From contig CAZNJI010000004.1 in assembly GCA_964573395.1 (NCBI GenBank), forward strand, positions 27,379-91,378: a DNA stretch of 64,000 nucleotides. Reading direction: 5' to 3'. The notes under the pieces were generated by a model. That model saw only the letters and a program-made list of their open reading frames with translations, searched no databases and had not been told where the DNA came from. Positions 2,335 to 38,829 of this stretch are shown here, piece after piece. Positions within the stretch are counted from its first letter, which is position 1. Every line of letters starts with the position of its first letter. The DNA is from an uncultured Candidatus Saccharibacteria bacterium (GTDB lineage: Bacteria > Patescibacteriota > Minisyncoccia > Phycocordibacterales > UBA9973). The translations under genes and the position numbers were made by a program.

Positions 2335-3525
<1,191 letters not shown>

Positions 3526-3550
3526 TACATCACTTGCTCTTTAGAAAAAA

Positions 3551-3931
3551 ATGACTGCTGCAACGAAAACAACCAAAGAACCAAAAGCAAAAACTACTAA
3601 GAAAGCTGCTTCAAAATCAGATGTTCCAAGTATCCTTCGCATCCGCGTACGCGCATACGAGAATAAGATTCTTGATGCCAGCACGAAGCAGATTATCGAT
3701 ACCGCACTTCGCTACGATGCAGTGGTGCGCGGACCGATTCCGCTTCCAACTGAAATCAAAAAGTACACTGTGAATCGCTCATCATTCGTGTATAAAAATT
3801 CACGAGAGCAGTTCGAGATGCGGGTACACAAACGTTTGATCGACATTGAAAATCCATCACCGAAGGTGATTGAAGCACTCACTAATCTCTCAATGCCATC
3901 TGGTGTTGATATTGATGTGAAGATGATGTAA
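3551..3931 (+). CDS. rpsJ: 30S ribosomal protein S10 with a Lys/Thr-rich N-terminal extension
   Basis: ILRIRVRAYE...RGPIPLPT...FEMRVHKRLIDI is the S10 core. Confidence 0.9.
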   Translation: MTAATKTTKEPKAKTTKKAASKSDVPSILRIRVRAYENKILDASTKQIIDTALRYDAVVRGPIPLPTEIKKYTVNRSSFVYKNSREQFEMRVHKRLIDIENPSPKVIEALTNLSMPSGVDIDVKMM

Positions 3932-3940
3932 TCAAAACAA

Positions 3941-3970
3941 AAACTCCCCAAAAGGGGAGTTTTTGTTTTC
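3941..3970 (+). terminator. Rho-independent terminator (AAAAACTCCCC-AAAA-GGGGAGTTTTTGTTTT)
   Basis: Hairpin plus T-run after rpsJ. Confidence 0.7.
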
Positions 3971-4008
3971 CCCTTGTTTTTTGGAATAGTGCGCCATACA
4001 ATAGGGGC

Positions 4009-6744: not shown

Positions 6745-6754
6745 AATAAAAGGT

Positions 6755-7186
6755 ATGGAATTTTTGAAAAGAAAAAATGTTTTTATTACTTCTTTAATTT
6801 TGGTTGCACTATTTGTGTTGCTTGGTCTTATAATGAGATCTAGTCAGTGTAAACTAGATTCGGTATGTAGTTCTTTATATTGGAGTGAATTTTGGAGCGA
6901 AAAACTTCCAACTATTCTATTTGTTTTAATAATCTCAATTTTTCCTTTCTCTACCCTTACTCTTTTTGCTCCAAATAATGCCTTTGATCGCTGGAAACGA
7001 TTTGCAGTATGGGCAGTTCCTATTCTGGCCTTGCTTACATTACCTATCATAAAAGCGCTTTCTGGTGATTGGCTTGATGTTGCAACTCCAACTCTTGTCT
7101 TTCTCTACGGCATTTATTTTATTATTTCTCTTGCCATTATCATCCGCGCATGGAGAAAGGAACGAAAGCTAAAAAATAATCCTTAG
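6755..7186 (+). CDS. Hypothetical polytopic membrane protein (143 aa)
   Basis: Three to four hydrophobic helices and a good RBS (AAAAGG). Confidence 0.5.
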   Translation: MEFLKRKNVFITSLILVALFVLLGLIMRSSQCKLDSVCSSLYWSEFWSEKLPTILFVLIISIFPFSTLTLFAPNNAFDRWKRFAVWAVPILALLTLPIIKALSGDWLDVATPTLVFLYGIYFIISLAIIIRAWRKERKLKNNP

Positions 7187-7200
7187 ATGGTAGTTGGATC

Positions 7201-7226
7201 AAAAATCCCCGAAAGGGGATTTTTTG
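7201..7226 (+). terminator. Rho-independent terminator (AAAAATCCCC-GAAA-GGGGATTTTTT), near-identical to the hairpin at 184-213
   Basis: Hairpin plus T-run, followed directly by TTGACA at 7228-7233. Confidence 0.7.
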
Positions 7227-7290
7227 CTTGACAACAATATAAAAGTCAGTAAAGTCTCTGAGAACAATTTTCTTAACCAAATTTAAACCC

Positions 7291-7467
7291 ATGGTTCGTT
7301 GGACGCTTATTTTCCTTATTATTGCCATTATTTCGGCAATATTCGGATTCGGCGGTATTGCAGCAGGAGCTGCAGGAATCGCCAAAGTTCTATTTTTCAT
7401 ATTCCTGGTTCTGTTCATACTCTCGCTCTTCGTCGGGGGCAGATCATCGCCGGATTATGAGGAATGA
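7291..7467 (+). CDS. DUF1328 (UPF0391/YtjA-like) small membrane protein, 58 aa; absent from the ORF track because it is under 60 aa
   Basis: Translation [58 protein letters not shown] matches the DUF1328 signature. Confidence 0.6.
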
Positions 7468-7670: not shown

Positions 7671-8273
7671 ATGAAATTCATTGTAGGAACAAAATCACAT
7701 ATGACCCAGCTGTTCAACGATAACGGAACGGTTATTCCAGTTACCGTGGTAAAAGCGGGTCCAATTACCGTTACCAAGGTAAAAACGGCCGATTCAGACG
7801 GCTACAGCGCCGTGCAGGTTGGTTTCGGAGACCAGAAAGAGTCTCGATCGAACAAGCCTACCCTTGGTTCTTTGGGCGGCAAGGCATACCAATTAGTGCA
7901 AGAATTCCGGGTGGATAATCCAACCGTTGCGGCAGGAGATACCATTGATGCGTCTGTTTTCTCTGAAGGAGACACCGTAACCGTTACTGGCACCTCAAAA
8001 TCAAAAGGGTTCCAGGGGGTAGTGAAGCGCCATGGGTTTGCTGGCGGTCCGCGCACGCACGGCCAGAAACACTCAGAGCGAGAACCAGGATCCATCGGCG
8101 GCGGACTTCGAACGCGCGTGCCAAAAGGAATGCGCATGGCAGGCCGCACTGGCGGGGATACGATAACGGTAAAACACCTTTCAATTGTTGCGGTTGATGC
8201 CGAAAAAGGAGAGCTCTACATTAAGGGGGCAGTGCCTGGTCGACGAGGAACATTTGTTAGCATTGTCGGATAA
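7671..8273 (+). CDS. rplC: 50S ribosomal protein L3
   Basis: MKFIVGTKSHMTQLFNDNGTVIPVTVV... is a typical L3 N-terminus. Confidence 0.95.
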   Translation: MKFIVGTKSHMTQLFNDNGTVIPVTVVKAGPITVTKVKTADSDGYSAVQVGFGDQKESRSNKPTLGSLGGKAYQLVQEFRVDNPTVAAGDTIDASVFSEGDTVTVTGTSKSKGFQGVVKRHGFAGGPRTHGQKHSEREPGSIGGGLRTRVPKGMRMAGRTGGDTITVKHLSIVAVDAEKGELYIKGAVPGRRGTFVSIVG

Positions 8274-8278
8274 ACTAT

Positions 8279-8989
8279 ATGGCTACAGCAAAAACTACAA
8301 CTAAAAAAGAGGCAGCAAAAGAGCAGAAAAATCTTGAAGCAGTGCTCTATACCCAAGTGGGAAAAGAATCAGGCTCTATTACGCTTCCTGAATCAGTATT
8401 CGGTTTGAAATGGAATGCTGACTTGGTGCACCAAGTTGCAACCAGCATGATGGCAAATGCTCGCGCAGGAACGGCGCACACCAAAGACAGAAGCGATGTT
8501 TCTGGCGGCGGCAAAAAGCCATGGAAACAGAAGGGAACCGGCCGCGCTCGCCACGGCTCGACGCGCAGCCCAATTTGGGTTGGCGGAGGAGTAACGTTCG
8601 GCCCTCGATCCGATAAGGATTACTCGAAGAAAATCAACAAGAAGATGCGCGCAAAAGCACTCTTCACCGTACTGTCGAAGAAATTCAATAATAGCGAATT
8701 GCTGTTTGTCGACAAGCTCTCTCTTGATGCGGTAAAAACAAAAGAAGCGCAACAGGTACTTGAGAACCTTGCAAAGATCAAAGGATTTGAAAAATTGAAC
8801 ACCAAAAAGAAAACCGGATCATTCGTAGTGCTTCCGGAAAAGAATGAAGCCGTCGAGAAATCATTTAGAAACATTCCAGGCGTTACTGTGGGAACGGTGC
8901 AAGACTTAAATGTTGTTTCAGCGCTTCATTTCAAATCGCTCGTTTTTGTCGGAAACGCAGCAGGCGCGCTTGAAGCAAAGCTAAAGTAA
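8279..8989 (+). CDS. rplD: 50S ribosomal protein L4
   Basis: KPWKQKGTGRARHGSTRSPIWVGGGVTFGPR motif. Confidence 0.95.
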   Translation: MATAKTTTKKEAAKEQKNLEAVLYTQVGKESGSITLPESVFGLKWNADLVHQVATSMMANARAGTAHTKDRSDVSGGGKKPWKQKGTGRARHGSTRSPIWVGGGVTFGPRSDKDYSKKINKKMRAKALFTVLSKKFNNSELLFVDKLSLDAVKTKEAQQVLENLAKIKGFEKLNTKKKTGSFVVLPEKNEAVEKSFRNIPGVTVGTVQDLNVVSALHFKSLVFVGNAAGALEAKLK

Positions 8990-9003
8990 CCGAGTAAGAT
9001 TGT

Positions 9004-9315
9004 ATGGCACGAACGAAAACAACAGAATCAAAGCAGGTAACCGCGCAGCATGGCATTTTGAAGCACCCGCGCATTACCGAAAAAGCGGCAACCGTTACGT
9101 CGTTTAACGTTTATGTATTCGACATCCTTCCTACCGTTACCAAAAGCGAAGTGGCGAAAGCGTTTTTCGCACAGTACGACATTAAGCCGGTAAAGGTGAA
9201 TGTGGTAAATAATAAGCAGAAAGCTGTGTATCGCCGCGGAGTCCTTGGATTTAAAGCTGGCATTAAAAAAGCATATGTCTATCTGCCGAAAGGAAAGACA
9301 ATTGATATCGTATAA
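9004..9315 (+). CDS. rplW: 50S ribosomal protein L23
   Basis: PRITEKA...FDI... L23 fold; operon position. Confidence 0.9.
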   Translation: MARTKTTESKQVTAQHGILKHPRITEKAATVTSFNVYVFDILPTVTKSEVAKAFFAQYDIKPVKVNVVNNKQKAVYRRGVLGFKAGIKKAYVYLPKGKTIDIV

Positions 9316-9323
9316 AACCAAGT

Positions 9324-10175
9324 ATGAAAAAGCATAAACCAACAACTCAATCTCGCCGCGCAACCATTACGCTTGAATATCGCAAGCTGCTTTCTCGCAC
9401 CACGCCGGAGAAGAAACTCACCAAAGGGGTAAAGCGCTCAGTTGGCCGAAACAACCAGGGCCGCATTACGACGCGGCACAAGGGAGGCGGAAACAAGCGC
9501 CTGTACCGTGCGGTAGATTTTGTATACGACAAGAAAAATATTCCGGCAAAGCTTTCTTCCATTGAGTACGATCCAAATCGCAGCGCATTCATCGGCGTAG
9601 CGGTATACCAAGACGGAGAAAAGCGCTATACAATCGTGCCAAAGTCGATGAAAGTTGGAGACAAATTCCAAGTGTCTGAAACAGCGCCAATTGCCCCAGG
9701 AAACCGTTTGCCGCTAAAGAACATTCCGGTTGGTACGTTTATTTTTAACATTGAACTGAAGCCAGGAAGCGGTGCAAAAATGGTTCGCTCTGCAGGAACC
9801 TTCGCGCAACTCGTAGCGCTCTCTGACGGCTACGCGCAGCTCAAGATGCCATCAACTGAAATTCGAAAAGTGATGGATGATTGTTGGGCAACTGTAGGTG
9901 AAGTGTCAAACGATGAGCACAAGCTCGTTTCCTACGGAAAAGCAGGGCGCTCTCGATGGAAGGGAATTCGCCCAACAGTGCGCGGTACTGCCATGAACCC
10001 GGTTGATCACCCATACGGTGGAGGTGAAGGACGACAGGGGCGCGGTACGAAGCGACCAAAGACCATGTGGGGTAAGATTACCGGCGGCCGCAAGACCCGC
10101 ACGCCGAAGAAATACTCGAACGACCTTATCGTCTCTCGACGCCGAGTCGGCAAGAATCGAAAGTCTGCAAGTTAG
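9324..10175 (+). CDS. rplB: 50S ribosomal protein L2
   Basis: GRNNQGRITTRHKGGG...GTAMNPVDHPYGGGEG motifs. Confidence 0.97.
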   Translation: MKKHKPTTQSRRATITLEYRKLLSRTTPEKKLTKGVKRSVGRNNQGRITTRHKGGGNKRLYRAVDFVYDKKNIPAKLSSIEYDPNRSAFIGVAVYQDGEKRYTIVPKSMKVGDKFQVSETAPIAPGNRLPLKNIPVGTFIFNIELKPGSGAKMVRSAGTFAQLVALSDGYAQLKMPSTEIRKVMDDCWATVGEVSNDEHKLVSYGKAGRSRWKGIRPTVRGTAMNPVDHPYGGGEGRQGRGTKRPKTMWGKITGGRKTRTPKKYSNDLIVSRRRVGKNRKSAS

Positions 10176-13967: not shown

Positions 13968-14013
13968 TAGCGATTTTTATACTCGCGTTACTCGTTAAAA
14001 ATCAGCCATACGT

Positions 14014-22934: not shown

Positions 22935-23264
22935 AGTTTTTTAAAAGCGTGCAATTAAGCGCTCGCTTGAAATGCCGTTTCGGGAACACGCATAAAATTC
23001 TCGTGAATTTTTGATCCGCTCGCCTTACGCCGACTGCGCGAGTTTCCCAAAACGGTATTTCTGCACTCGCTTCCGAGTTCTTGCCTTGAGGAATTTTGAT
23101 CATACGAACCGGTGAATCGAAGCATTCCGAAGGAAAAAATAATCTGTCTGAGGCTTTGCGAGTTTTTATTTTTAGCGAAGGTGAGCCTCGTGAGTATTCA
23201 AAATTTCGAGGACAAGCCGGCTTTTTGCTTACTTTTTTCCGGCGAAAAAGTAAGGTATATATTA

Positions 23265-23293
23265 TTGACTAAATAGGCAAACTATGCTATAAT
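23265..23293 (+). promoter_or_regulatory. Consensus sigma70 promoter TTGACT, 17 bp, TATAAT
   Basis: TTGACT at 23265-23270 and TATAAT at 23288-23293, upstream of the ORF starting at 23328. Confidence 0.6.
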
Positions 23294-23327
23294 AGCAAAA
23301 ATTTCAAAACGTTAAATATAGAAATAA

Positions 23328-23951
23328 ATGAGAAAAATATGCATGCTGATGTTCGCGAGTATTATGCTTGCCGAATCAGCCGCTCAGTCTTCTTTCTTCA
23401 TTGAAGGCCAAGCAGTATACCCGACCTTCGGAGCAAAAGTGGACGGCCCCGACTACTATTTCATAAATCCTTTCTTTTCTGCAACGAACAAGAAAGGGAA
23501 CGGGTTTTTCATCGAAGGATCGTTTGAGCCGGAAGTGTTCTCTATTTCTCCAGGGTTGCTGATCTCACGCACCGGAAAGGGAAAAGCCAAAGTCTACAAA
23601 GAGTTCGGCGTCGGGATGGGGTTTGAGTTTCCGCGATTGAAAGGCGGGCAGAAGGAGTTGTTCTTAAACGACTACTTCTACCTTGAATCCCATTCGGAGG
23701 ACAGCGTTGACGTGAGGAAGAGAAATAAAATTATTCTGAATTTCAACCACGCCTACGCAGAATCATGGAAACACTGGTACATGCTCTCTGCTCTTTATTT
23801 TCCTTTGAAGTGGCTTGGTATTGGCGCTCATGCCCAAAGCTATGCCGCAACCGGCGCGCGCGTACAGCTTGCGCTTCCAAGCGGAATTAATATCTGGGCG
23901 GCAGGCTGGCCGAAGGAGAAAATGCAGTTTGCAGTGAATGTGTACTTTTGA
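23328..23951 (+). CDS. Hypothetical secreted protein (signal peptide MRKICMLMFASIMLAESAAQS)
   Basis: Signal peptide; aromatic-rich, beta-barrel-like composition; own promoter and terminator. Confidence 0.5.
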   Translation: MRKICMLMFASIMLAESAAQSSFFIEGQAVYPTFGAKVDGPDYYFINPFFSATNKKGNGFFIEGSFEPEVFSISPGLLISRTGKGKAKVYKEFGVGMGFEFPRLKGGQKELFLNDYFYLESHSEDSVDVRKRNKIILNFNHAYAESWKHWYMLSALYFPLKWLGIGAHAQSYAATGARVQLALPSGINIWAAGWPKEKMQFAVNVYF

Positions 23952-23961
23952 ATGAAGAGTC

Positions 23962-23999
23962 TTAAAAAAAGAAACCGCCCTCTTAGGGGCGGCTTTTTG
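23962..23999 (+). terminator. Rho-independent terminator (AAACCGCCCTCTTAGGGGCGGCTTTTTGTT)
   Basis: Hairpin plus T-run. Confidence 0.7.
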
Positions 24000-24031
24000 T
24001 TGGTTTGTAACTTTTTTTGAAGGACGATTCT

Positions 24032-24436
24032 TCATGCACTGACAGCGTTTTGCATTGCTTTTTTGATTTCTGAAACGGCTTCGTTCTTTAAAACGACGAT
24101 TCCGTCTTTGCTGTAATGAACAGCAGGATGCATGTCGGTTACCTTGGGTCGGCCGACTGAGTCTTCTCCGAATACGTCGGGGTTAATGGTTTTCATTTGG
24201 TTTAAATCAACCAAATACCTGGTGTTTCCCGGCATTTTCAGTTGGCATGCCGCTAAATTTTTCGATCGCATTTCCTGTCCAACTTCGGCAACTGCCATAT
24301 TTAAGGCAGGCTTGGAGGTAGAAACGGTTTCTGTGAACTGGCAGTTCAGAAATGGGTTTGCAGAGGCTTTAACGCTTGTCATGGGATGATTTGTTTTAAA
24401 GTGCATAAAATAAAAAGTGTTTTCAACACTATACAC
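24032..24436 (-). CDS. Hypothetical protein (134 aa or shorter; start uncertain)
   Basis: Only an ORF; no motif recognised. Confidence 0.35.
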   Translation of the reverse strand: MYSVENTFYFMHFKTNHPMTSVKASANPFLNCQFTETVSTSKPALNMAVAEVGQEMRSKNLAACQLKMPGNTRYLVDLNQMKTINPDVFGEDSVGRPKVTDMHPAVHYSKDGIVVLKNEAVSEIKKAMQNAVSA

Positions 24437-24506
24437 TCTTTTCCATAAAAATCAACTATTATTTGACAGTACCTTTTGAAAAGCGTACAGTCTAAAAAAA
24501 CAAATT

Positions 24507-24815
24507 ATGCACCTCCTAAACGCTTTTTCCCCGATTGAACACCCCATTGTACGGGGCATTCTCGCCCTCAGTGGGCTTATCATCCTCTACTTTATTTGCC
24601 GGGCTATCATTGGGCCGGAATTATACGTCGAAGTGGAAATCACTTTCGACAAAGAACAGAAGCTCGTACGGCGGTACAAAAAGGATGGCAAGTATTTCAT
24701 CGTTGAGCCTGCCGGAAACGGAGATGAGGAAAAGCTTATTGAACCGAACGAAAGCGAGGCGAAGATTATTGCAGAAGAATTTATCATCAAGCTTCAGTCT
24801 TTAAAAGTTGCCTAA
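24507..24815 (+). CDS. Hypothetical small membrane-anchored protein (102 aa)
   Basis: N-terminal TM helix followed by a charged region; terminator downstream. Confidence 0.4.
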   Translation: MHLLNAFSPIEHPIVRGILALSGLIILYFICRAIIGPELYVEVEITFDKEQKLVRRYKKDGKYFIVEPAGNGDEEKLIEPNESEAKIIAEEFIIKLQSLKVA

Positions 24816-24827
24816 TGGTACAGTAGT

Positions 24828-24862
24828 GAACCCGCGCAGTCTTAGTTGCGCGGGTTTTTGAC
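24828..24862 (+). terminator. Rho-independent terminator (GAACCCGCGCAGTCTTAGTTGCGCGGGTTTTTG)
   Basis: Hairpin plus T-run. Confidence 0.7.
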
Positions 24863-25065
24863 TCTGCGGCAGATATAGGTAAAAGAGGGAAAAGGCCACG
24901 AAAAATGAAAAAATAAAGTCTTGCTTGCCCGCTACTTTTTCAGTGTACTGCGCATAAACGGGGTTATCCACCTGGCTTCCGCCCACGCTTCTTGCTACAG
25001 TTGGTTTAGTAGTTTCGAAATATTGAAATTACTGCTTTTTTGCAATCACGAAAACGTTCTTTTAT

Positions 25066-25692
25066 ATGACACACATAACGAATTCAATGGAATGGGTTGA
25101 ATATGACCGCGGGCACAGCGTGGAATTGGTGCGGCGGCGGGAAAAGGATTGCTGGGAATGGCTCTTTCGGGGCAAAACCCTTGATTTCATCGTAAGAAAA
25201 CTCAGTAATCTACTTCCGCTTAACCAGAAAGCAGTGCTTCTTCCGTCGAAGGCAGACTGCGTTCTATTTGCCAACCCGCACCGCCCCGAAGAAATGGCTC
25301 TTGCTCTGCAGCAGCTATTTGAGCGCGAGCGTGCTCTGTGGGATGTGGTGCTCACGGCGCATGCATGGCGCGCGCCGCTCGAGCTTCCCGTACGCACCGA
25401 CCAAACAAAACGGATTATGCTCACGAAAAAAGACGAGGCGTGTTTCGACGTTTTGTTTCAGAAGAAGAATCTGGATTTCATTGCTGCCAAGCTGAATGCC
25501 GTCTGGCTTCCGGATGACGTGCGGATATTTTTTCCGGCGGCATGGAAAGAGGCGATTGTCGTGCACCGAAAAGATCTTGCCGGCGCGATATCTCAGGCAA
25601 AAGATCTGTTGTCCCGCATTGGCTCGCGGTACGACATTGGCCTTGCATGCAAGGAAGAGACGGCGCGGTTTCCATTCATGAAAGCGGTATGA
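25066..25692 (+). CDS. Hypothetical protein with an internal tandem duplication (208 aa)
   Basis: Two homologous ~60-aa segments: WEWLFRGKTLDFIVRKLSNLLP... and FDVLFQKKNLDFIAAKLNAVWLP... Locally GC-rich. Confidence 0.45.
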   Translation: MTHITNSMEWVEYDRGHSVELVRRREKDCWEWLFRGKTLDFIVRKLSNLLPLNQKAVLLPSKADCVLFANPHRPEEMALALQQLFERERALWDVVLTAHAWRAPLELPVRTDQTKRIMLTKKDEACFDVLFQKKNLDFIAAKLNAVWLPDDVRIFFPAAWKEAIVVHRKDLAGAISQAKDLLSRIGSRYDIGLACKEETARFPFMKAV

Positions 25693-25734
25693 ACCCATTC
25701 AATAACGGCTCCAGTTGACTGGAGCCGTTTCTAT

Positions 25735-26058
25735 TTGCATACTTTAGAAACTATGAAAATAAAAAAACCGCTTCCTCGTGCCGCTTATGAGCGCAACGCG
25801 GAAACCTATAAGATTCTCGCCAACCCGAAACGGCTTGAAATACTGAATCTGCTTCGAGAACAGGAAATGTCCGTTGAAGATCTGGTGAAAACGCTCGGCG
25901 TTCCGAAAGCGAACGTTTCCCAGCATCTTGCACTCCTTCGTTATGCAAAGCTAGTAACTGTGCGCCCGGATGGGTTGAACCGCCACTATGCAATCGTTGA
26001 CCCTCGGATCGTTGAGCCATGCCGTATTTTGCATCAGCTGTACTTGAAAAGGGGCTAA
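25735..26058 (+). CDS. ArsR/SmtB-family HTH transcriptional regulator
   Basis: ANPKRLEILNLLREQEMSVEDLVKTLGVPKANVSQHLALLRYAKLV is a winged helix-turn-helix of ArsR type. Confidence 0.75.
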   Translation: MHTLETMKIKKPLPRAAYERNAETYKILANPKRLEILNLLREQEMSVEDLVKTLGVPKANVSQHLALLRYAKLVTVRPDGLNRHYAIVDPRIVEPCRILHQLYLKRG

Positions 26059-26123
26059 CGGCAAAAACATCCTCATTTCAGCGTAATTAACGCGGGGGAG
26101 AGGGAAAATGGTATCATGGCGAC

Positions 26124-26969
26124 ATGCAAAAGCGTTTTATTCCAGCACTTTTTCTCGTGGTTTATGGCGCGCTCCTGATCAAGGTAATGGTATTCAAAGA
26201 CGTGCCGCTTATGAGGGTGGGCGGAATTATGCTTAATTTTGGAGGAACGGCCGAAGGCCAAGCCAACCTCGTGCCGTTCAAGACCATCGTGCCGTATTTC
26301 TTTGGCGAGCAGGGGTTGATTATCGCGGGCATTAATCTTGCCGGAAACATTGCTTTACTGGTGCCAATCGGATTTCTTATTCCATTCGTTTATCGGAACA
26401 TGCAATGGAAAAAATCTTTGGCTCTTGGTGTCGCCGCCGGCCTTACCATCGAAGGAGCGCAGGTTTTGTTTCGCGTGGGCATATTCGACATTGATGACGT
26501 GATACTGAACGCGCTGGGGGTCATGATCGGCCACTTCACATGTACGATTCTTGGAAAGTGGGTACGTGAAAAAAGATATATAAACATACTTATTGCAGTA
26601 ATTATTGTTATTGCCGCCACTGCGGGTGCGTTTTATGCACTTTATCCGAAAGATCAACCGGTGAACCCAAGAGGTGTTGTTGGCAACAGTCAGGCTGGTG
26701 CAATTCTCCAAAATGGCGATCTCTGCGGTGGCACGGGCGGCAACGGGGAAATTGCCAGCGTAGGAATAAGTAATTTTATCATCAAACGAAATGATAACGA
26801 CAGTGGTCAGATCATCCATCTTACAGGCCGGGCCAGAATCGAAACTTCAACAGGTTCGGCAACTCTATCCGATTTGAAAATAGGAGATCATGTAACGCTG
26901 GTTGGAGGACCAAACCCCGATGGTAGTTTTACCGCGGAGGCTGTTTTCCTCTGTAATCCAACATACTAA
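26124..26969 (+). CDS. VanZ-like membrane protein with a C-terminal soluble beta-rich domain
   Basis: VanZ-like TM core (NLVPFKT..., DIDDVILNALGVMIGH). C-terminal GDHVTLVGGPNPDGSFTAEAVFL looks like a DUF5666-type beta domain. Confidence 0.55.
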   Translation: MQKRFIPALFLVVYGALLIKVMVFKDVPLMRVGGIMLNFGGTAEGQANLVPFKTIVPYFFGEQGLIIAGINLAGNIALLVPIGFLIPFVYRNMQWKKSLALGVAAGLTIEGAQVLFRVGIFDIDDVILNALGVMIGHFTCTILGKWVREKRYINILIAVIIVIAATAGAFYALYPKDQPVNPRGVVGNSQAGAILQNGDLCGGTGGNGEIASVGISNFIIKRNDNDSGQIIHLTGRARIETSTGSATLSDLKIGDHVTLVGGPNPDGSFTAEAVFLCNPTY

Positions 26970-27006
26970 AAAACATGAGCGCCCGAGAGGGCGCTCATGT
27001 TTTAAC
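26970..27006 (+). terminator. Rho-independent terminator (AAAAACATGAGCGCCC-TCGAGA-GGGCGCTCATGTTTT)
   Basis: Long perfect stem plus T-run. Confidence 0.75.
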
Positions 27007-27099
27007 AGGTGTGTTTATTGTACCAAGTTAGAACCTATTTCCAAAATCGCTGACAATGTGCCACGCGCGAAGCGCGAGGTGACTCTAAACTAAATCATA

Positions 27100-27330
27100 C
27101 GCTCCACGAAAGCCCCGCCACCGCCTCGCTTCACTCGACAACCCCGAAAGAAAACACTCCTTGCTTTTTGTTTTTGCGCGGGGGTGAATTTTTTCTGAAA
27201 AAGGAAAGGGTGTTTTCTTTCGGGGTTCTGCCCTCAATGCTTCGGGCAGGTGGCGGGGCTTCAATGCGGACTCGGTTTTGCGAAAACTATTTTTCTGGGG
27301 ATTTGGATTTTCGCAAAACCGAGACTAATT
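27100..27330. repeat. Nest of perfect palindromes in a GC-rich non-coding stretch
   Basis: Three inverted-repeat pairs. 13 bp: AAGCCCCGCCACC 27111-27123 / GGTGGCGGGGCTT 27250-27262. 18 bp: AACCCCGAAAGAAAACAC 27140-27157 / GTGTTTTCTTTCGGGGTT 27210-27227. 16 bp: CTCGGTTTTGCGAAAA 27272-27287 / TTTTCGCAAAACCGAG 27308-27323. Confidence 0.85.
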
Positions 27331-27370
27331 TGTTTTTGGATTTTGTCCGCGCGGAGGAGGGGTCTGGGGA

Positions 27371-27412
27371 GGAATCCGCGCGGGCTTTCTGATTTTTTGG
27401 CGAGTTTGACAA
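27371..27412. repeat. Left copy of a perfect 42-bp inverted repeat (GGAATCCGCGCGGGCTTTCTGATTTTTTGGCGAGTTTGACAA) bounding the copper cassette
   Basis: Exact reverse complement of 31425-31466. Contains the 3' arm of a terminator-like hairpin (TCCGCGCGGA 27344-27353 / TCCGCGCGGG 27375-27384), a T-run, and a TTGACA -35 box. Confidence 0.9.
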
Positions 27413-27443
27413 ATATACCCCCTAGGGGGTATATTTGTTTTAT
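27405..27443 (+). promoter_or_regulatory. csoR promoter with an overlapping CsoR-type operator palindrome (ACAAATATACCCC-CTAG-GGGGTATATTTGT)
   Basis: TTGACA 27405-27410; perfect 13-bp-arm palindrome 27409-27438 with an ATACCCC/GGGGTAT core like known CsoR operators. Confidence 0.6.
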
Positions 27444-27452
27444 ATGAAATAC

Positions 27453-27719
27453 ATGAATGAAAATAGTAAGGCAAAAGTCGTGCGCCGCCTAAAACTTTTA
27501 GAAGGCCAGGTTCGCGGACTTCAAAGGATGGTGGAAAACGACACCTACTGCATTGACGTGATCACGCAAACATCAGCGGTAAAACAAGGCTTGTCTAATG
27601 TCGAAGACTTGCTTCTTGAAAATCACCTTGGTCATTGCGTTTTCCATCAGGTGCAATCTGGTCAAACCAAAAAGGCCAAGGAAGAAATTATCAAAGTATA
27701 CAAGCTAAAGAGAAAATAA
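27453..27719 (+). CDS. csoR: Copper-sensing transcriptional repressor, CsoR/RcnR (DUF156) family
   Basis: [36 protein letters not shown]...HLGHC motif. ATG 27453 is in frame with the ORF-track start at 27435. Confidence 0.8.
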
Positions 27720-27720
27720 T

Positions 27721-30015
27721 ATGCATACACAAACTTACAAAGTAAAAGGCATGCATTGCGCTTCCTGTTCCTCGGTCATCGAGAAAACGTTTAAGAAAGT
27801 TGAGGGAGTGCAATCTGCAGAGGTGAATTACGGCACAGAGAAAGCCAAAGTTTCTTTTGATCCGTCAAAAACGAATCCCCACGATCTTTCCAAGCACATC
27901 GAGCCACTTGGTTATTCTTTGGAGGTTCCTTCCACCGCCGAGGAGATGGGCATGTCGGAGAGTGAGCATGCGGCGCATTTGGGGTTGAATCAATCGAAAA
28001 AAGAAAAGCTTGCAGAGGTTGCGGATATGCGGATAAAAGTGCTTTCGGCTATTCCTATCGCTATTTTTGCGGCCCTCGTTATGGGTTGGGAGATTCTGGC
28101 GAAGTATGGCCTTGTCTCCGAGATGAGTACCGTGCTCGAGGAATTTTTCCACCATCTCCTCCCCGTGTTGGCGACATACATTCTTTTCGTTGTTGGTAAG
28201 CCATACCTGCTTGGTTTTTACAGATTCCTTCGATACGGCAAGGCAAACATGGACACCCTGATCGGCATTGGAACCGTTGCCGCATTTTTATATAGCTTTG
28301 CAGTTACCGCCTTTGAGGAAACGCTCAAGCCTTTTATAAACGTTGAGTATCAGTATTACGACGTGACAATCGTTGTCATTACGTTCATTGCACTTGGTAA
28401 ATATTTGGAGGCAAGATCAAAAATAAAAACAGGAGATGCAATTGAAAAACTTCTTAACCTCCAAGCTAAGACTGCGCTTGTCATTCGTGACGGCAAAGAG
28501 ATAGAAATTTCAGTAAACGACGTTAAGCATGGAGATTTGATTATTGTAAAACCCGGAGCAAAGATTCCGGTGGATGGCATCATAACCGAAGGCAGTTCTT
28601 TCGTTGATGAGTCTATGGTCACCGGAGAGCCGATGCCAGCACAGAAAAAAGTCGGAGATGGTGTAGTGTCAGGAACTATTAACACGAGCGGTTCATTTAC
28701 GTTTAAAGCCACGAAAGTTGGCTCGGAGACTTTGCTTGCCCAGATAATCAAGATGGTTGAAGAGGCTCAAGGGAGTAAAGCACCGATTCAAGCACTGGCA
28801 GACAAAATCTCATCTGTCTTTGTGCCTATCGTGCTTGTAATCGCATTCCTTACTCTTGGTGCGTGGCTCATTGTCGGCTCACAGTATATAGGATTCTCCC
28901 AATCTCTATCGTTTGGCCTAGTGTCGTTTGTCGGCATCCTAGTGATTGCGTGTCCATGCGCTTTGGGACTTGCTACCCCTACCGCCATCATTGTTGGTGT
29001 TGGCAAAGGGGCTAAGGAAGGCATTCTCATCAAAGATGCCGCTACCCTTGAAAAATTGCACAAGGTGGACACGGTCATTGTCGACAAAACCGGAACGATC
29101 ACTATTGGAAAACCAACGCTTGTCGATATTCAAAACCTCTCAAATCTAAAAGATGATGAACTAGTCTCAATTATTGCTTCGTTAGAGAAAAAATCAGAAC
29201 ATCCGATCGCCCATGCAATCGTAAGCTACGCTCAAGAAAAGAATATCCCATTATCAGAGACTTCAGCGTTCGAAGGGATACAAGGCAAAGGTCTCAAGGG
29301 TAGAGTTAAAGAAACTGAATACTTTGTCGGTAATGCAAAACTCATAAGTGATCTAGAACTTTCTTTTGATGCTACAAAATTTCATGAGTTTACATCCCAA
29401 GGCAAGACACCCGTTATTCTCTCTACCAAAGAAAAGGTGCTCGGTTTTGTGATGGTAGCTGATGAAATAAAACAGGAGTCAAAACAGGCTATCTCTGATC
29501 TCCATAAGCTGGGCATCAAGGTCGTCATGCTCACTGGCGATGATGAAAAAGCGGCAAAATATATTGCTTCGCTTGTCGGCATTGATGATGTTGTCGCCCA
29601 TGTGCTACCACAAAACAAACTTGAGAAGATACAGTCACTTCAATCACAAGGACGGATAGTGGCCATGGCTGGTGATGGTGTAAACGATGCTCCAGCACTC
29701 GCTCAGGCAGATGTGGGCATCGCTATGGGAACTGGAACTGATGTGGCGATTGAGTCAGCCGGTATCACGCTTCTTGGTGGCGATATCTCAAAACTTGTGA
29801 AGGCCATCAGACTCTCCAAGATCACCATGAGAGGAATCAAGCAAAATTTATTCTGGGCATTTATATACAACGTAGTGGGCATTCCACTTGCGGCAGGAGT
29901 TTTCTATCCGATTTTCGGATGGTTATTAAACCCTATTTTTGCCGGATTCGCCATGGCGATGTCATCGGTGTCAGTGGTGTCGAACTCACTCCGAATTAAA
30001 ACTAAGAAATTATAA
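27721..30015 (+). CDS. copA: Cu(I)-translocating P1B-type ATPase
   Basis: N-terminal HMA domain (GMHCASCSS), TM CPC motif ([11 protein letters not shown]), [15 protein letters not shown]. Confidence 0.95.
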
Positions 30016-30018
30016 ATT

Positions 30019-31026
30019 ATGAAATCATACACATTCCACGTTTCCGGTACTCATTGTGCATCATGCAAAATATTCATTGAAGACACTCTTAATGAACAGA
30101 TTGGTATTGAGCGTACTCATGTTGATTTGAAAAGTGAAACTGTCTCGATTGACACTACCCTTGAAGAGAGCCAGCACAAACTCGCAGAAATATTGACTGA
30201 AAAAATAAAGCACAACGGCTATTCTCTGTCCGTCGAGAAGAAGGTTAAAGAAAAACAGAACGGTGATGTGATTTGGAAAGCATTGCCAATTGGAATTGGT
30301 TTTCTTGTTTTGTTTTTCTTACTACAGAAGTCAGGAATCCTTAATCTTGGAATTGGCGGACAAACTACACCAGTTACAAGTTTTATTATTGGTCTCATAG
30401 CGTCAGTGTCCAGCTGTCTTGCCATCGTGGGAGGTTTGGTTTTATCTCTCTCCGCTAAGATATCACAGGACAACGTGAGCGATACAAAGACGTTCGTGCT
30501 TTTTCACGCAGGAAGGCTTGTAAGCTTTGCGGCCCTGGGTGGTGTTCTTGGGGCGGTTGGCAGTGCAATCGGCATTAACTTTACGCTTACCTCAATACTG
30601 GGGCTTTTGGCATCGGTGGTAATGCTGTTACTCGGTCTGAACTTGGTCGGAGTGTTTGAAAAAAATAAAGTTGCGCTACCTTCAGGACTATTCAATTTTT
30701 TTAGGAGAATCGAGCATAAGACATTCACCCCTCTTGTTCTTGGTTTTGCTACATTTTTCTTGCCGTGTGGCTTTACACAGTCGATGCAGGTTTCTGCACT
30801 GGGAAGCGGATCGTTTATGTCCGGACTTTTTATCATGCTTGCATTCGCACTTGGAACACTGCCAATGCTCGTGCTTCTTTCATTCGGTTCGGCCTCGTTT
30901 GCCCACGGGAAGCACGCTCCATTGTTTTTTAAGTCAGCAGGAATAGTGGTGATCGGACTCGGACTGTTTGCGTTTCTCGCTGGACTTGCCGGGCTCGGAA
31001 TTATTAACCCACTATTTAACATTTAA
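30019..31026 (+). CDS. HMA-domain membrane protein with a DsbD/CcdA-like transmembrane thiol domain
   Basis: N-terminal GTHCASC metal-binding fold; six or more TM helices with membrane-embedded Cys (SSCLA, FLPCGF). Confidence 0.6.
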   Translation: MKSYTFHVSGTHCASCKIFIEDTLNEQIGIERTHVDLKSETVSIDTTLEESQHKLAEILTEKIKHNGYSLSVEKKVKEKQNGDVIWKALPIGIGFLVLFFLLQKSGILNLGIGGQTTPVTSFIIGLIASVSSCLAIVGGLVLSLSAKISQDNVSDTKTFVLFHAGRLVSFAALGGVLGAVGSAIGINFTLTSILGLLASVVMLLLGLNLVGVFEKNKVALPSGLFNFFRRIEHKTFTPLVLGFATFFLPCGFTQSMQVSALGSGSFMSGLFIMLAFALGTLPMLVLLSFGSASFAHGKHAPLFFKSAGIVVIGLGLFAFLAGLAGLGIINPLFNI

Positions 31027-31030
31027 TTTT

Positions 31031-31423
31031 ATGAATAAAACCGCTTCCATTATCATCACGCTCGCACTTGTTATAGGTCTTGGCATTGTGTTTTTAGGGC
31101 AATCAAAAAATAACTCCGAGTCTACGACTGGATCAGCTCAAAACGTCGAAATACGAGACGGGGTTCAGTACGTCACCATTAACGCTCGAGGCGGATACTC
31201 TCCCAAGGTGACTAAAGCGCAAGCCAACATGCCGACAAAATTGATTGTTAAAACCAATGGCACATACGATTGTTCGGCATCGCTCGTTATCAGATCAATT
31301 GGTTATCAGAAAATCTTACCTCAAACAGGAGAAGAACTTATTGATCTTGGTACTCCGCAAGCTGGAACAGTCCAAGGTCTTTGCAGTATGGGAATGTACA
31401 ATTTCGCAGTCAATTTTAAGTAG
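31031..31423 (+). CDS. Membrane-anchored putative copper-binding protein (cupredoxin-like?), 130 aa
   Basis: N-terminal TM anchor; conserved Cys/Met pattern (TYDCS...GLCSMGMY); sits in the cop cluster. ATG 31031 is in frame with ORF 30968. Confidence 0.45.
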   Translation: MNKTASIIITLALVIGLGIVFLGQSKNNSESTTGSAQNVEIRDGVQYVTINARGGYSPKVTKAQANMPTKLIVKTNGTYDCSASLVIRSIGYQKILPQTGEELIDLGTPQAGTVQGLCSMGMYNFAVNFK

Positions 31424-31424
31424 C

Positions 31425-31466
31425 TGTCAAACTCGCCAAAAAATCAGAAAGCCCGCGCGGATTCCC
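31425..31466. repeat. Right copy of the perfect 42-bp inverted repeat bounding the copper cassette
   Basis: Exact reverse complement of 27371-27412; lies 93 bp from the tmRNA 3' end. Confidence 0.9.
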
Positions 31467-31500
31467 CTGCGGATTCTGAGCGAAATTCAGGCGAAACACA

Positions 31501-31525
31501 GTGGGCGTGCCTTCGGCACGCCCAC
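31501..31525 (-). terminator. Hairpin GTGGGCGTGCC-TTCG-GCACGCCCAC downstream of the ssrA 3' end
   Basis: Perfect 10-bp stem; read on the minus strand it follows the tmRNA and precedes a U-rich run. Confidence 0.5.
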
Positions 31526-31559
31526 GCATTGGCTCGTTCAGAGCCTCTTAGTTCTGTTT

Positions 31560-31944
31560 TGGTGGAGATGGGGGGAATTGAACCCCCGTGCAATAGGGAA
31601 TGACATACAAATCTCCGTGCGCAGCACAACTTGGGCGTTTAAGCGATGCACGAACAAGTCGTGCAAACTGTGCATTGCCGATCCTTTACGTTGTCGTTTT
31701 GCTCTTAAGGAAAAGAGCAGAATCTATTCTGATGTTCTTACACCTCTACCTTTCTATCAGAAATTGAAAGGAGAGACGCCAGCTTGGCTTACGCGAAAGC
31801 TGGAGCGAAGGCCTTACCGAAGTAAGGAGACTTCACCTTAGCGACACTGTTGCCAGATATCGTGTGAACGAAGGTTGCGGGATTACGTCCGTACCCGGCA
31901 CGCATGCATGTCTAATTCTTCTATTGTCGATGCCGATCATCCCC
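31560..31944 (-). ncRNA. ssrA: tmRNA (SsrA), about 385 nt, with encoded CCA
   Basis: Minus-strand 5' end GGGGAUGAUCGGCAUCGAC resembles the tmRNA consensus GGGGCUGAUUCUGGAUUCGAC. The 3' end is GGGGGUUCAAUUCCCCC-CAUCUCC-ACCA, a T-arm plus acceptor pairing with the 5' GGGGAUG, with a G3:U wobble. The internal ORF GCU AAG GUG ... GCG UAA predicts the tag AKVKSPYFGKAFAPAFA. smpB lies just upstream. Confidence 0.85.
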
Positions 31945-32017: not shown

Positions 32018-32281
32018 TCACTTATTCTGCGATTTTAAATAATCAACTTTTAGTTTCCTTTTAAACCGACCTGCCCACAGGCTTTTGAGAAATCTTTCTC
32101 GGCTAAATGCCTGTACCTTACTCTCAAATTTTTCTGAGTGAATAAGCTCAACAGGTAAGCGGTTTTGTGTGGCAGGAACATGTCCATCTTGATGACGTTT
32201 AAGTCGATTATTTAAATTGCTTGTACAACCGACGTATAACTTTTTATCTTTAAGAGATATGAGTATATAGACGATATACAT
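32018..32281 (-). CDS. Stand-alone GIY-YIG nuclease-domain protein (87 aa), wedged between smpB and ssrA
   Basis: MYIVYILISLKDKKLYVGCTSNLNNRLKRHQDG...ELIHSE...RERFLK is a GIY-YIG/URI signature. Paralogue of the gene at 10646-10915. Confidence 0.75.
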   Translation of the reverse strand: MYIVYILISLKDKKLYVGCTSNLNNRLKRHQDGHVPATQNRLPVELIHSEKFESKVQAFSRERFLKSLWAGRFKRKLKVDYLKSQNK

Positions 32282-38576: not shown

Positions 38577-38644
38577 ATATAAAGTAAAACATGAAGTTGT
38601 GAATTATTCCAACCTTGGCTAGAATCAGTGTCAGTTCTTTCGAT

Positions 38645-38718
38645 GGGAGTATAGCTCAGTTGGTTAGAGCATCGAGCTTATACCTCGAGGGTCGATGGTT
38701 CGAGTCCATCTACTCCCA
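38645..38718 (+). tRNA. tRNA-Ile with anticodon UAU (reads AUA); CCA not encoded
   Basis: Cloverleaf folded by hand. Acceptor GGGAGTA/TACTCCC; D-stem GCTC/GAGC. Anticodon stem TCGAG/CTCGA with loop CTTATAC, so anticodon TAT. T-arm GATGG-TTCGAGT-CCATC. Discriminator A. Confidence 0.8.
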
Positions 38719-38829
38719 CCCGTTTGGATGCATTATCTGAAGGCTTACCTGACCTTTATCCACAAGCAGGATTCTGGCATCTGGTTTCTCTGTGGACTTT
38801 CGTATCTCTACTGCGATACAATAAAGGGC

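Follow-up and report, generated by a model that had tools for sequence, protein, structure and literature searches.

Genomic islands and other integrative elements are inserted at the 3' ends of tRNA and transfer-messenger RNA (tmRNA) genes by site-specific recombinases; examples are the islands at ssrA and the 'tycheposons' of Prochlorococcus. Patescibacteria have tiny genomes with few recognised mobile elements, and gene exchange among them is extensive. We analysed 64,000 nucleotides of DNA from an uncultured Candidatus Saccharibacteria bacterium (GenBank assembly GCA_964573395.1, contig CAZNJI010000004.1, positions 27,379 to 91,378; hereafter the window, to which all coordinates refer), where a perfect inverted repeat brackets a four-gene copper cassette close to the tmRNA gene ssrA. 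An earlier sequence-only reading of the window had drawn attention to this repeat. The region 27008-31560 is most probably a decayed integrative element of the large serine recombinase (LSR) type, inserted at the end of ssrA, with the two arms of the repeat left by an internal deletion.

The element resembles tRNA/tmRNA islands in its target (the 3' end of ssrA, or of a tRNA gene in relatives), in the reconstituted gene end, in the short identical core, in the empty site found in a relative, and in its variable accessory cargo (metal resistance, defence), and decayed recombinase-less derivatives occur as well. It differs from them in that the recombinase is an LSR with the attachment site attP at its own 3' end, and in that the cargo is framed by a pair of inverted, hairpin-rich modules that reach at least 487 bp and are usually perfectly identical. 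LSR integrases (phiC31, Bxb1, TP901-1, TnpX, CcrAB) have the same Resolvase, Recombinase and Zn-ribbon architecture and, as far as the DNA alone indicates for the present family, the same conservative attP x attB exchange with a very short core and no long junction repeats; unlike them, an element of this family can have two inverted attP-like sites, an att flank inside a multi-hairpin unit, and a host among the Patescibacteria. Enzyme-less cargo between inverted copies, with identical arms around unrelated cargo, is shared with composite elements and cargo bracketed by miniature inverted-repeat transposable elements, with mobile insertion cassettes, and with recombinase-mediated cassette exchange (RMCE). 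In contrast to the composite and miniature-element cargo and the mobile insertion cassettes, however, the integrating unit does not end at the arms, and there is neither a target duplication nor a transposase; RMCE is a laboratory design and not a known natural system, and exchange in the present family is conjectural. All structural hallmarks of tRNA/tmRNA islands and of serine-integrase elements were found at the locus, except for the recombinase.

The features of the insertion are as follows (junctions are marked by a slash):

26970-27003, no strand assigned: bidirectional terminator hairpin after vanZ, AAAAACATGAGCGCCCGAGAGGGCGCTCATGTTTT, left half of attB
27008-27011, no strand assigned: GGTG crossover core of the left junction, attL (four-way alignment of attB, attP-like site, attL and attR)
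27012-27411, plus strand: full-length repeat unit, arm a, about 400 bp, outer end GGTG/TGTTTATTGTACCAAG
27108-27263: long composite hairpin of arm a
27271-27323: hairpin 1 of arm a, loop CTATTTTTCTGGGGATTTGGAT
27347-27384: hairpin 2 of arm a, loop AGGAGGGGTCTGGGGAGGAAT, followed by a T-run and the inner end at TTGACA
27371-27411, plus strand: left arm of the 41-bp repeat, inner 41 nt of the full unit, the last 6-7 nt being the csoR -35 box
27444-31423, plus strand: cargo, four-gene copper module (Pfam; same genes and order in most relatives kept)
31425-31465, minus strand: right arm of the 41-bp repeat, inner 41 nt of a second unit (arm b), truncated on its outer side
31466-31559, plus strand: X segment, 94 nt with two hairpins, fused to ssrA; in intact elements at or just beyond the LSR 3' end, ending at the att core
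31560-31944, minus strand: ssrA, tmRNA gene and integration target (Rfam RF00023, 103 bits)
31561-31564, no strand assigned: GGTG crossover core of the right junction, attR, within the CCA end of ssrA (same alignment)

The ssrA gene of the window is 82-83% identical to the ssrA genes of two relatives, L002 and L231 (83% for L231). By its SmpB homologues, the organism belongs to the Patescibacteria/Paceibacterota. Both flanks (FtsH-PepF-SmpB-ssrA on one side, TruB-IF3-L20-MAP-ADK-SecY on the other) are conserved with L002, and the sole differing stretch is that from TruB to ssrA (22935-31559 in the window). The right junction between the X segment and ssrA and the left junction between host and unit near 27008 together predict an empty site with the terminator directly after ssrA, and L231 (SmpB 78% identical) matches this prediction exactly: its ssrA 3' end directly abuts the vanZ-side terminator. 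Downstream of ssrA, L231 reads ssrA...CTCCACC/TGTTAAAACATTAGCGCC..GGCGCT (with the ssrA side as ...CCCCCCATCTCCACC/TGTTAAAACATTAGCGCC..GGCGCT), and its junction ...CATCTCCACC/TGTTAAAACATTAGCGCC equals the end of the window's ssrA followed by the reverse complement of 27007-26970. The insertion comprises 27008-31560, i.e. 4553 bp counting one copy of the core, and its termini, about 360 bp and about 95 bp beyond the arms, do not form an inverted repeat with each other.

The attachment sites could be read as well. The attB of L231 is aatgttttaaca/GGTG/gagatgggggg, and an attP-like site in L131 is cgctaagttctattct/GGTG/tctctattgtaccaa, with the same arrangement in L209. In the window, attL combines the left side of attB with the right side of attP, catgttttaaca/GGTG/tgtttattgtaccaa (right side also written tgtttattgtaccaag), and attR combines the left side of attP with the right side of attB, ctcttagttctgtttt/GGTG/gagatgggggg (left side also written ttagttctgtttt); the two are exact reciprocal hybrids of the L231 and L131 sites around GGTG. 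The position at a tmRNA integration hotspot, to which the sequence-only reading had pointed, was borne out. A proposed comparison of GC content was uninformative: by composition, the element is not distinguishable from its flanks.

The inverted repeat itself is perfect, as had been reported, over 41 of 41 bp and not over 42: the arms are 27371-27411 (plus strand) and 31425-31465 (minus strand), and identity stops abruptly at both edges, where 27412 (A) faces 31424 (C) and 27370 (A) faces 31466 (C). No such inverted match was obtained in 100 dinucleotide-preserving shuffles, in agreement with the view that chance is a poor explanation. With up to three mismatches, the arm sequence occurs in just these two copies in the 64-kb window, and no direct repeat or target-site duplication was found beside the 41-bp arms. 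The left arm contains the 3' half of the hairpin 27347-27384 plus the T-run, as described; the 5' half of that hairpin is absent from the right arm, and the description does not hold there. The distance from the right arm to the tmRNA 3' end (31560) is 94 nt and not 93. The innermost 7 nt of the arms (27405-27411, TTTGACA; 31425-31431, TGTCAAA) coincide with the csoR -35 box. Logan unitigs (k=31), assembled independently from the window's own run (SRR15237806) and a sister run, end at 27400 when coming from the vanZ side, and one from the smpB/ssrA side ends at 31436; each of these ends is exactly 30 nt inside an arm, so that the reads truly branch at the arm boundaries, which are no artefact of assembly.

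A hairpin-rich unit of about 400 bp (27012-27411) contains the left arm as its innermost 41 bp. A unit profile (nhmmer) matched 27092-27411 at E=6e-58 and the right arm (31465-31410) at E=1.6e-4, with nothing else credible in the rest of the 64-kb window, which thus holds one full unit and one 41-nt fragment, the latter being all of the second inverted unit that the window contains. The leftward extent to about 27012 was set by homology to the arm of L209 and to outer parts of L131, L129, L174 and L201. A search of Rfam 15 with 26950-27460 at a relaxed threshold gave only sub-threshold matches at chance level. An exact 23-mer of the arm had no match in GTDB representative genomes or JGI metagenomes, for which reason the exact arm sequence is considered rare; the family of units was revealed through the loop motif of hairpin 2. 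This loop (AGGAGGGGTCTGGGGAGGAAT) recurs on different stems in two unrelated loci, L036 and L047, and a scan of JGI and ENA metagenome contigs for the motif yielded at least 120 loci; the counts of two-copy loci, recombinases and cargo given here are drawn from 120 loop-motif loci among the matches listed. Nine matches on viral contigs were rejected as G-rich stretches without hairpins that are unrelated to the family.

Units of the family are about 200-490 bp long and consist of hairpin 1 (loop CTATTTTTCTGGGGAnnnGGA), hairpin 2 (loop AGGAGGGGTYTGGGGAGGAAT), a T-rich tail and an end at variable DNA; the invariant loop sequences are GGAGGGGTYTGGGGAGGAA and CTGGGGAnnnGGA. The unit of the window has both hairpins; outward it ends at the GGTG core, and inward it borders directly on the cargo. 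Across 75 non-redundant units, compensatory double changes occur at 14 of 17 predicted stem pairs with the loops invariant. In a tally of wobble pairs over the stem pairs, U-G and A-C cells are about equal, and with no strand bias the tally does not separate RNA-level from DNA-level structure.

Among the matches listed, 38 loci contain two motifs, in the inward-facing orientation (+/-) in 35 cases, -/+ in two and -/- in one. The paired arms are 59-487 nt long and most pairs are 100% identical. Many contigs of the family are 'lollipops' that end at the assembler's k; in nine pairs, both arms are internal to the contig and the flanks of the two sides differ, and the inverted repeats are therefore real. 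The hairpins and T-run of each unit are directed inward, and the position in the unit at which the cargo joins varies by a few nucleotides only; a cargo promoter often lies right at the boundary. The cargo of the 35 pairs falls into 83 protein clusters with no enzyme in common, and arms of at least 95% identity bracket unrelated cargo (e.g. 11 instances with 11 different cargo sides in cluster 1); the window's own arm type was also found with other cargo in L109, L131 and L164. These observations favour the third option of the sequence-only reading, a cassette captured between two copies of a repeat element. The sequence-only reading would have fallen if the repeat were a common genome-wide terminator or repetitive extragenic palindrome. 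The repeat does belong to a family present in many genomes; this family goes with mobile elements, however, and is probably no generic repeat of that kind. The units and inverted-arm cargo slots were not described in the limited literature searched, including a study of gene exchange in aquifer Patescibacteria, and the family is apparently widespread in Patescibacteria and undescribed.

The sole recurrent enzyme of the family is an LSR (Resolvase, Recombinase and Zn_ribbon_recom domains) that is encoded just outside one arm and usually transcribed away from it. It is present in 23 of the 120 loci listed, and beside 12 of the 39 units whose outside flank measures 1.5 kb or more. The 3' end of the LSR gene meets the 3' end of a tRNA gene, with an overlap in L103, L148 and L210 and a distance of about 60 nt in L137; in L210 (LSR gene at 2564-4102), the LSR frame runs into the reverse complement of the tRNA exactly at TGGCGG. 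The LSR gene itself is bracketed by inverted copies of the core-adjacent segment (L140 I2, L126). The canonical integrated layout (e.g. L210) is host / unit(a) -> cargo <- unit(b) <- X <- promoter, LSR -> X' / tRNA or tmRNA, in which the proximal arm retains an intact X-core-unit, i.e. a second attP-like site in inverted orientation. A tblastn search of the 64-kb window with four queries gave no LSR homologue (other recombinase classes were not screened exhaustively), and since relatives have an LSR beside their arms, the copy in the window is regarded as a recombinase-less derivative. The earlier statement that the window lacks transposase, integrase and invertase genes stands, within this scope, for LSR homologues.

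The X segment beside ssrA is 80% identical over 79 nt to positions 76-153 of L131 (BLAST, E=4e-13), where it is followed by TGGTG and then by the outer end of a unit; weaker matches were found at the LSR 3' flanks of L209 and L066, and in L066 the X segment is joined to a tRNA gene. It forms two covarying hairpins, the first of which (31501-31525; fold z=-3.9) is strong and terminator-like and is predicted to terminate ssrA now. A tRNA/tmRNA-like gene fragment or a coding part of the recombinase was considered for the arm outer end. An open reading frame reads through the arm outer end in the subfamily of L140 and L210; in the subfamily of the window, X has stops in all frames and covarying hairpins and is better treated as non-coding. 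An insertion-sequence-like arrangement with the LSR between terminal inverted repeats, or a composite transposon, was ruled out by the presence of one LSR per pair and by the distal arm ending at the att core.

For the right arm, the ENA contig L003 (MEGAHIT) was informative. It matches the window over 27271-31465 and continues as the reverse complement of 27370-27271, i.e. the right arm runs for at least 100 nt further as the reverse complement of the left flank in the window, which implies an inverted repeat of at least 141 nt (the assembler's k) in that sample. A second inverted unit is thus found for the same cassette, as in 35 of the 38 two-copy loci listed. In the window, a deletion of the LSR and about 360 bp of the second unit is most likely, because the X segment beside ssrA normally sits 3' of an LSR; the deletion junction (31465/31466, GGATTCC/CCTGCGG) is compatible with an ATTCC microhomology.

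The insertion, its boundaries, the hybrid att sites and the place of the locus in the unit family are on firm ground at the level of sequence, as is the link between that family and LSR and tRNA genes. The following course of events would account for them. The element would have entered the tmRNA 3' end by conservative, LSR-type site-specific recombination between attP (X-GGTG-unit) and attB (terminator-GGTG-ssrA end), with a cargo slot between two inverted copies of the unit, filled here by csoR-copA-HMA/DsbD-cupredoxin. An LSR would thus once have been present at this locus, and a later internal deletion, from the hairpin-2 loop of unit(b) to a point in X', perhaps via the ATTCC microhomology, would have taken away the LSR gene, the X copy upstream of it and some 360 bp at the outer end of unit(b). 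The 41 bp of unit(b) left facing the intact unit(a) would be the perfect inverted repeat observed, and the element would now be fixed in place.

As for the role of the units, we tentatively suggest that they are inward terminators or insulators combined with conserved homology or att arms for the exchange of cargo between elements, and, with similarly low confidence, that their inverted orientation prevents loss of cargo or recombinase by recombination. The conserved loops may be recognised by the LSR or by another factor. A more far-reaching proposal, which we consider doubtful, is that paired inverted units, with two attP-like sites and conserved structured DNA or RNA modules, form a cargo-docking platform on which the LSR, or structure-guided recombination, would swap whole cassettes between elements and never delete them, as a natural counterpart of RMCE that would be widespread in Patescibacteria.

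Several observations weigh against the proposed history. The intact element, with an LSR beside this copper cassette and these arms, was not recovered, and the deletion is reconstructed from relatives; L003 could in principle be a graph 'lollipop', though that shape implies an inverted repeat of at least k; and the ATTCC microhomology is drawn from one distant relative, the X' of L066 (compared with the reverse complement of the left unit). The canonical layout simplifies matters, in that some loci have three units or no LSR (L140, L185). Moreover, the arms end with TTTGACA, whereas closely related units usually have the inner end ...GGCGGCTA, and an arm-less, 79%-identical cassette (L010) has TTTGACA...TGTCAAA at the same two positions, which the model leaves unexplained. 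In L010, this is a 12-nt inverted repeat, ATATTTGACAGT, at 9959-9970 and 13985-13996, without hairpin units; TGTCAA directly after the cupredoxin stop codon was found in 2 of 80 cassettes only, those of the window and L010. The shared sequences could be a relic of an earlier arm-bracketed state, or short terminal inverted repeats of the cassette itself.

The latter point bears on the first option of the sequence-only reading, that 27371-31465 is a non-autonomous transposon or mobile insertion cassette with 41-bp terminal inverted repeats, mobilised by a transposase in trans. The perfect repeat immediately brackets the four genes, and the 12-nt repeat ATATTTGACAGT of L010 occupies precisely these two positions in other genomic surroundings. 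The empty site, however, sets the boundaries at 27008 and 31560 and not at the arms, which largely refutes this idea; the ends are attL and attR with a 4-bp core and not inverted repeats, no target-site duplication accompanies the arms, and the left arm makes up just the innermost tenth of a 400-bp unit found beside unrelated cargo elsewhere. Furthermore, among some 50 complete relatives of the cassette, inverted matches between the flanks do not exceed background, and no transposase is tied to the family (83 cargo protein clusters, none a shared enzyme), so that such a transposon appears very improbable. An origin of the right arm de novo, by a template switch or inverted duplication that placed a copy of the csoR upstream region at the 3' end of the operon, would explain why the repeat includes the TTTGACA (7 nt) of the csoR promoter seen in armless relatives, and why more is duplicated in L003 (at least 141 nt) than in the window (41 nt). 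In the family, nevertheless, full-length units in inverted pairs are the rule (35 of 38 listed), and the arm stops where X begins, as a deletion within the canonical layout predicts; we regard a de novo origin as quite improbable.

An invertible segment was also proposed: site-specific or homologous recombination between the arms would turn the cassette round, either as a switch or incidentally. The repeats are inverted, a serine recombinase is encoded beside intact elements, and arms that are usually 100% identical within a pair and differ between elements suggest ongoing recombination or gene conversion. At this locus, however, no LSR homologue is present in the window, 41 bp is a poor substrate for homologous recombination, and no contig was found with the cassette in the opposite orientation to its flanks; among the five elements of the L210/L103/L105/L148/L206 type, it is without exception the same inner hairpin and cargo end that lie beside the LSR. 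Inversion would not alter expression, the promoter and operator being part of the arm and cassette, and an invertible segment, too, seems improbable. The repeat could, finally, be an artefact of assembly or a chimeric join, given that the contig is from a metagenome-assembled genome (MAG), that short exact repeats are common at misjoins, and that related contigs are 'lollipops' ending at the assembler's k. We give this next to no credence: the Logan unitigs of the same run enter the arms from either flank to a depth of 30 nt, synteny with relatives holds on both sides, and the two outer junctions rebuild the empty site of a relative to the base. We therefore retain the decayed LSR element with an internal deletion as the best explanation.

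If so, tRNA/tmRNA-targeting LSR elements with identical inverted arms and one interchangeable cargo slot, occupied by copper resistance in the window and by defence genes (e.g. a ThsB-like TIR protein) in at least one other element, are a candidate for an abundant vehicle of gene exchange in Patescibacteria. Their attB, attP, attL and attR sites are readable from sequence and might yield new integrases with natural targets at tRNA ends. Inverted arms with conserved loops on covarying stems bear on how cargo is acquired and kept, and in annotation a fixed, recombinase-less copper island can be distinguished from the host backbone.

Some further features of the family were noted. The intact element of L210 encodes a ThsB-like TIR protein and an 8xMP membrane protein as cargo (4540-7326), which suggests a defence function of this cargo; two genes outside its distal arm (7698-9271) resemble, from their translations alone, an AbiEi/AbiEii-type pair. 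The inner ends differ in the arm type of L103, L105, L112, L148, L152, L159, L206, L210, L214 and L221: in L210-type arms the LSR-proximal hairpin is ATTTTGC-AAA-GCAAAAT and the distal hairpin GCCAGTT-GAAA-AACTGGC, i.e. of the same structure and different sequence, and both are followed by G(C/T)GCCACC and immediately thereafter by variable cargo. The loops of hairpins 2 and 1 in the window (27355-27375 and 27287-27310) contain Shine-Dalgarno-like or GGA motifs (AGGAGG, GGAGGA, CTGGGGA; CCUCC on the other strand), which could bind protein or pair with ribosome-binding sites. A LOOT RNA (RF03000, 87 bits) is predicted in the inverted-arm cargo of L036 (13619-13741, minus strand), about 70 nt from the right arm.

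The cargo of the window is represented by the following features:

27406-27438, plus strand: csoR promoter and CsoR-box-type palindromic operator (promoter match, palindrome)
27444-27719, plus strand: csoR, CsoR PF02583 (Pfam)
27721-30015, plus strand: copA, CopA-type P1B ATPase with N-terminal HMA (HMA, E1-E2 ATPase and hydrolase domains)
30019-31026, plus strand: HMA-DsbD_2 membrane protein (Pfam HMA and DsbD_2)
31031-31423, plus strand: cupredoxin-like protein (Pfam Cupredoxin_1)

The description of four co-oriented copper genes with their own operator was confirmed by the Pfam domains and by a promoter that overlaps a palindrome. The promoter-like site, TTGACA-18-TATATT at 27406-27435 (11 of 12 positions match the consensus), is overlapped by a perfect 30-nt palindrome at 27409-27438. 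In armless relatives, TTGAC(A/T) with ATACCCCCTAGGGGGTAT is likewise arranged upstream of csoR, and an exact TTGACA was found within 75 nt upstream of csoR in 27 relatives. The cassette has the full set of marks of a CsoR-regulated copper efflux operon (CsoR PF02583, a P1B ATPase with HMA, a palindromic operator at the promoter), and copper is the predicted metal substrate from protein family membership. As in known CsoR-CopA operons, a GC-rich palindromic CsoR box lies over the promoter and a P1B-type ATPase with N-terminal HMA follows; unlike in these, there is an extra HMA-DsbD_2 membrane protein and a secreted cupredoxin-like protein, and the resulting set of four genes is conserved across hundreds of Patescibacteria genomes.

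Relatives of the cassette number at least 541 among GTDB species representatives, of which 80 loci were kept; the four genes are in identical order in most of these and in JGI loci (e.g. L010). The cassette was found at 99.9-100% nucleotide identity in data of other accession series, namely DRR736439, DRR736418, DRR736432, DRR404984 and ENA ERZ27309384, and the 79%-identical cassette of L010 (JGI metagenomes) is placed between rplL/tRNA and mraZ; the copper cassette is horizontally mobile. The 30-nt palindrome breaks k=31 unitigs, so that public contigs of the cassette begin there and not in the arm (the Logan contigs L004 and L005 start at 27406 and 27409). Flanking inverted repeats were ruled out as a general feature of the cassette: in about 50 complete relatives, the best inverted match between upstream and downstream flanks is 7-14 nt, no better than in a direct-repeat control, and the 41 nt of the window are an exception. 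In an exact protein look-up, CopA gave no record, and CsoR and HMA-DsbD gave matches.

In ten GTDB loci (L022, L026, L030, L032, L046, L048, L059, L070, L079 and L090), a different large serine recombinase (Resolvase, Recombinase and Zn-ribbon), about 35% identical to that of L210, is encoded directly beside the copper cassette, which indicates that the cassette rides on more than one family of serine-recombinase elements. The cassette contigs of L023, L026, L027 and L031 (GTDB) are filed in MAGs labelled as Gammaproteobacteria, Flavobacteriaceae and Oligoflexales; the HMA-DsbD proteins of these cassettes are 78-90% identical, and many other records are labelled Saccharibacteria, which suggests either mis-binning or mislabelling, or transfer beyond the phylum. 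Upstream of the tRNA gene that precedes the copper cassette in L010, a partial duplicate of the tRNA 5' half (GCGCCCTTAGCTCCCTGGCC...GGTAGAGCG) at 9760-9900 looks like the scar of an earlier integration or excision at that tRNA.

Near the insertion site, a gene for a stand-alone GIY-YIG nuclease of 87 amino acids is predicted between smpB and ssrA (32018-32281, minus strand); it is missing at that position in L002, and none was called there in L231. A gene for tRNA-Ile (anticodon TAT) was predicted at 38644-38721 of the window (ARAGORN).

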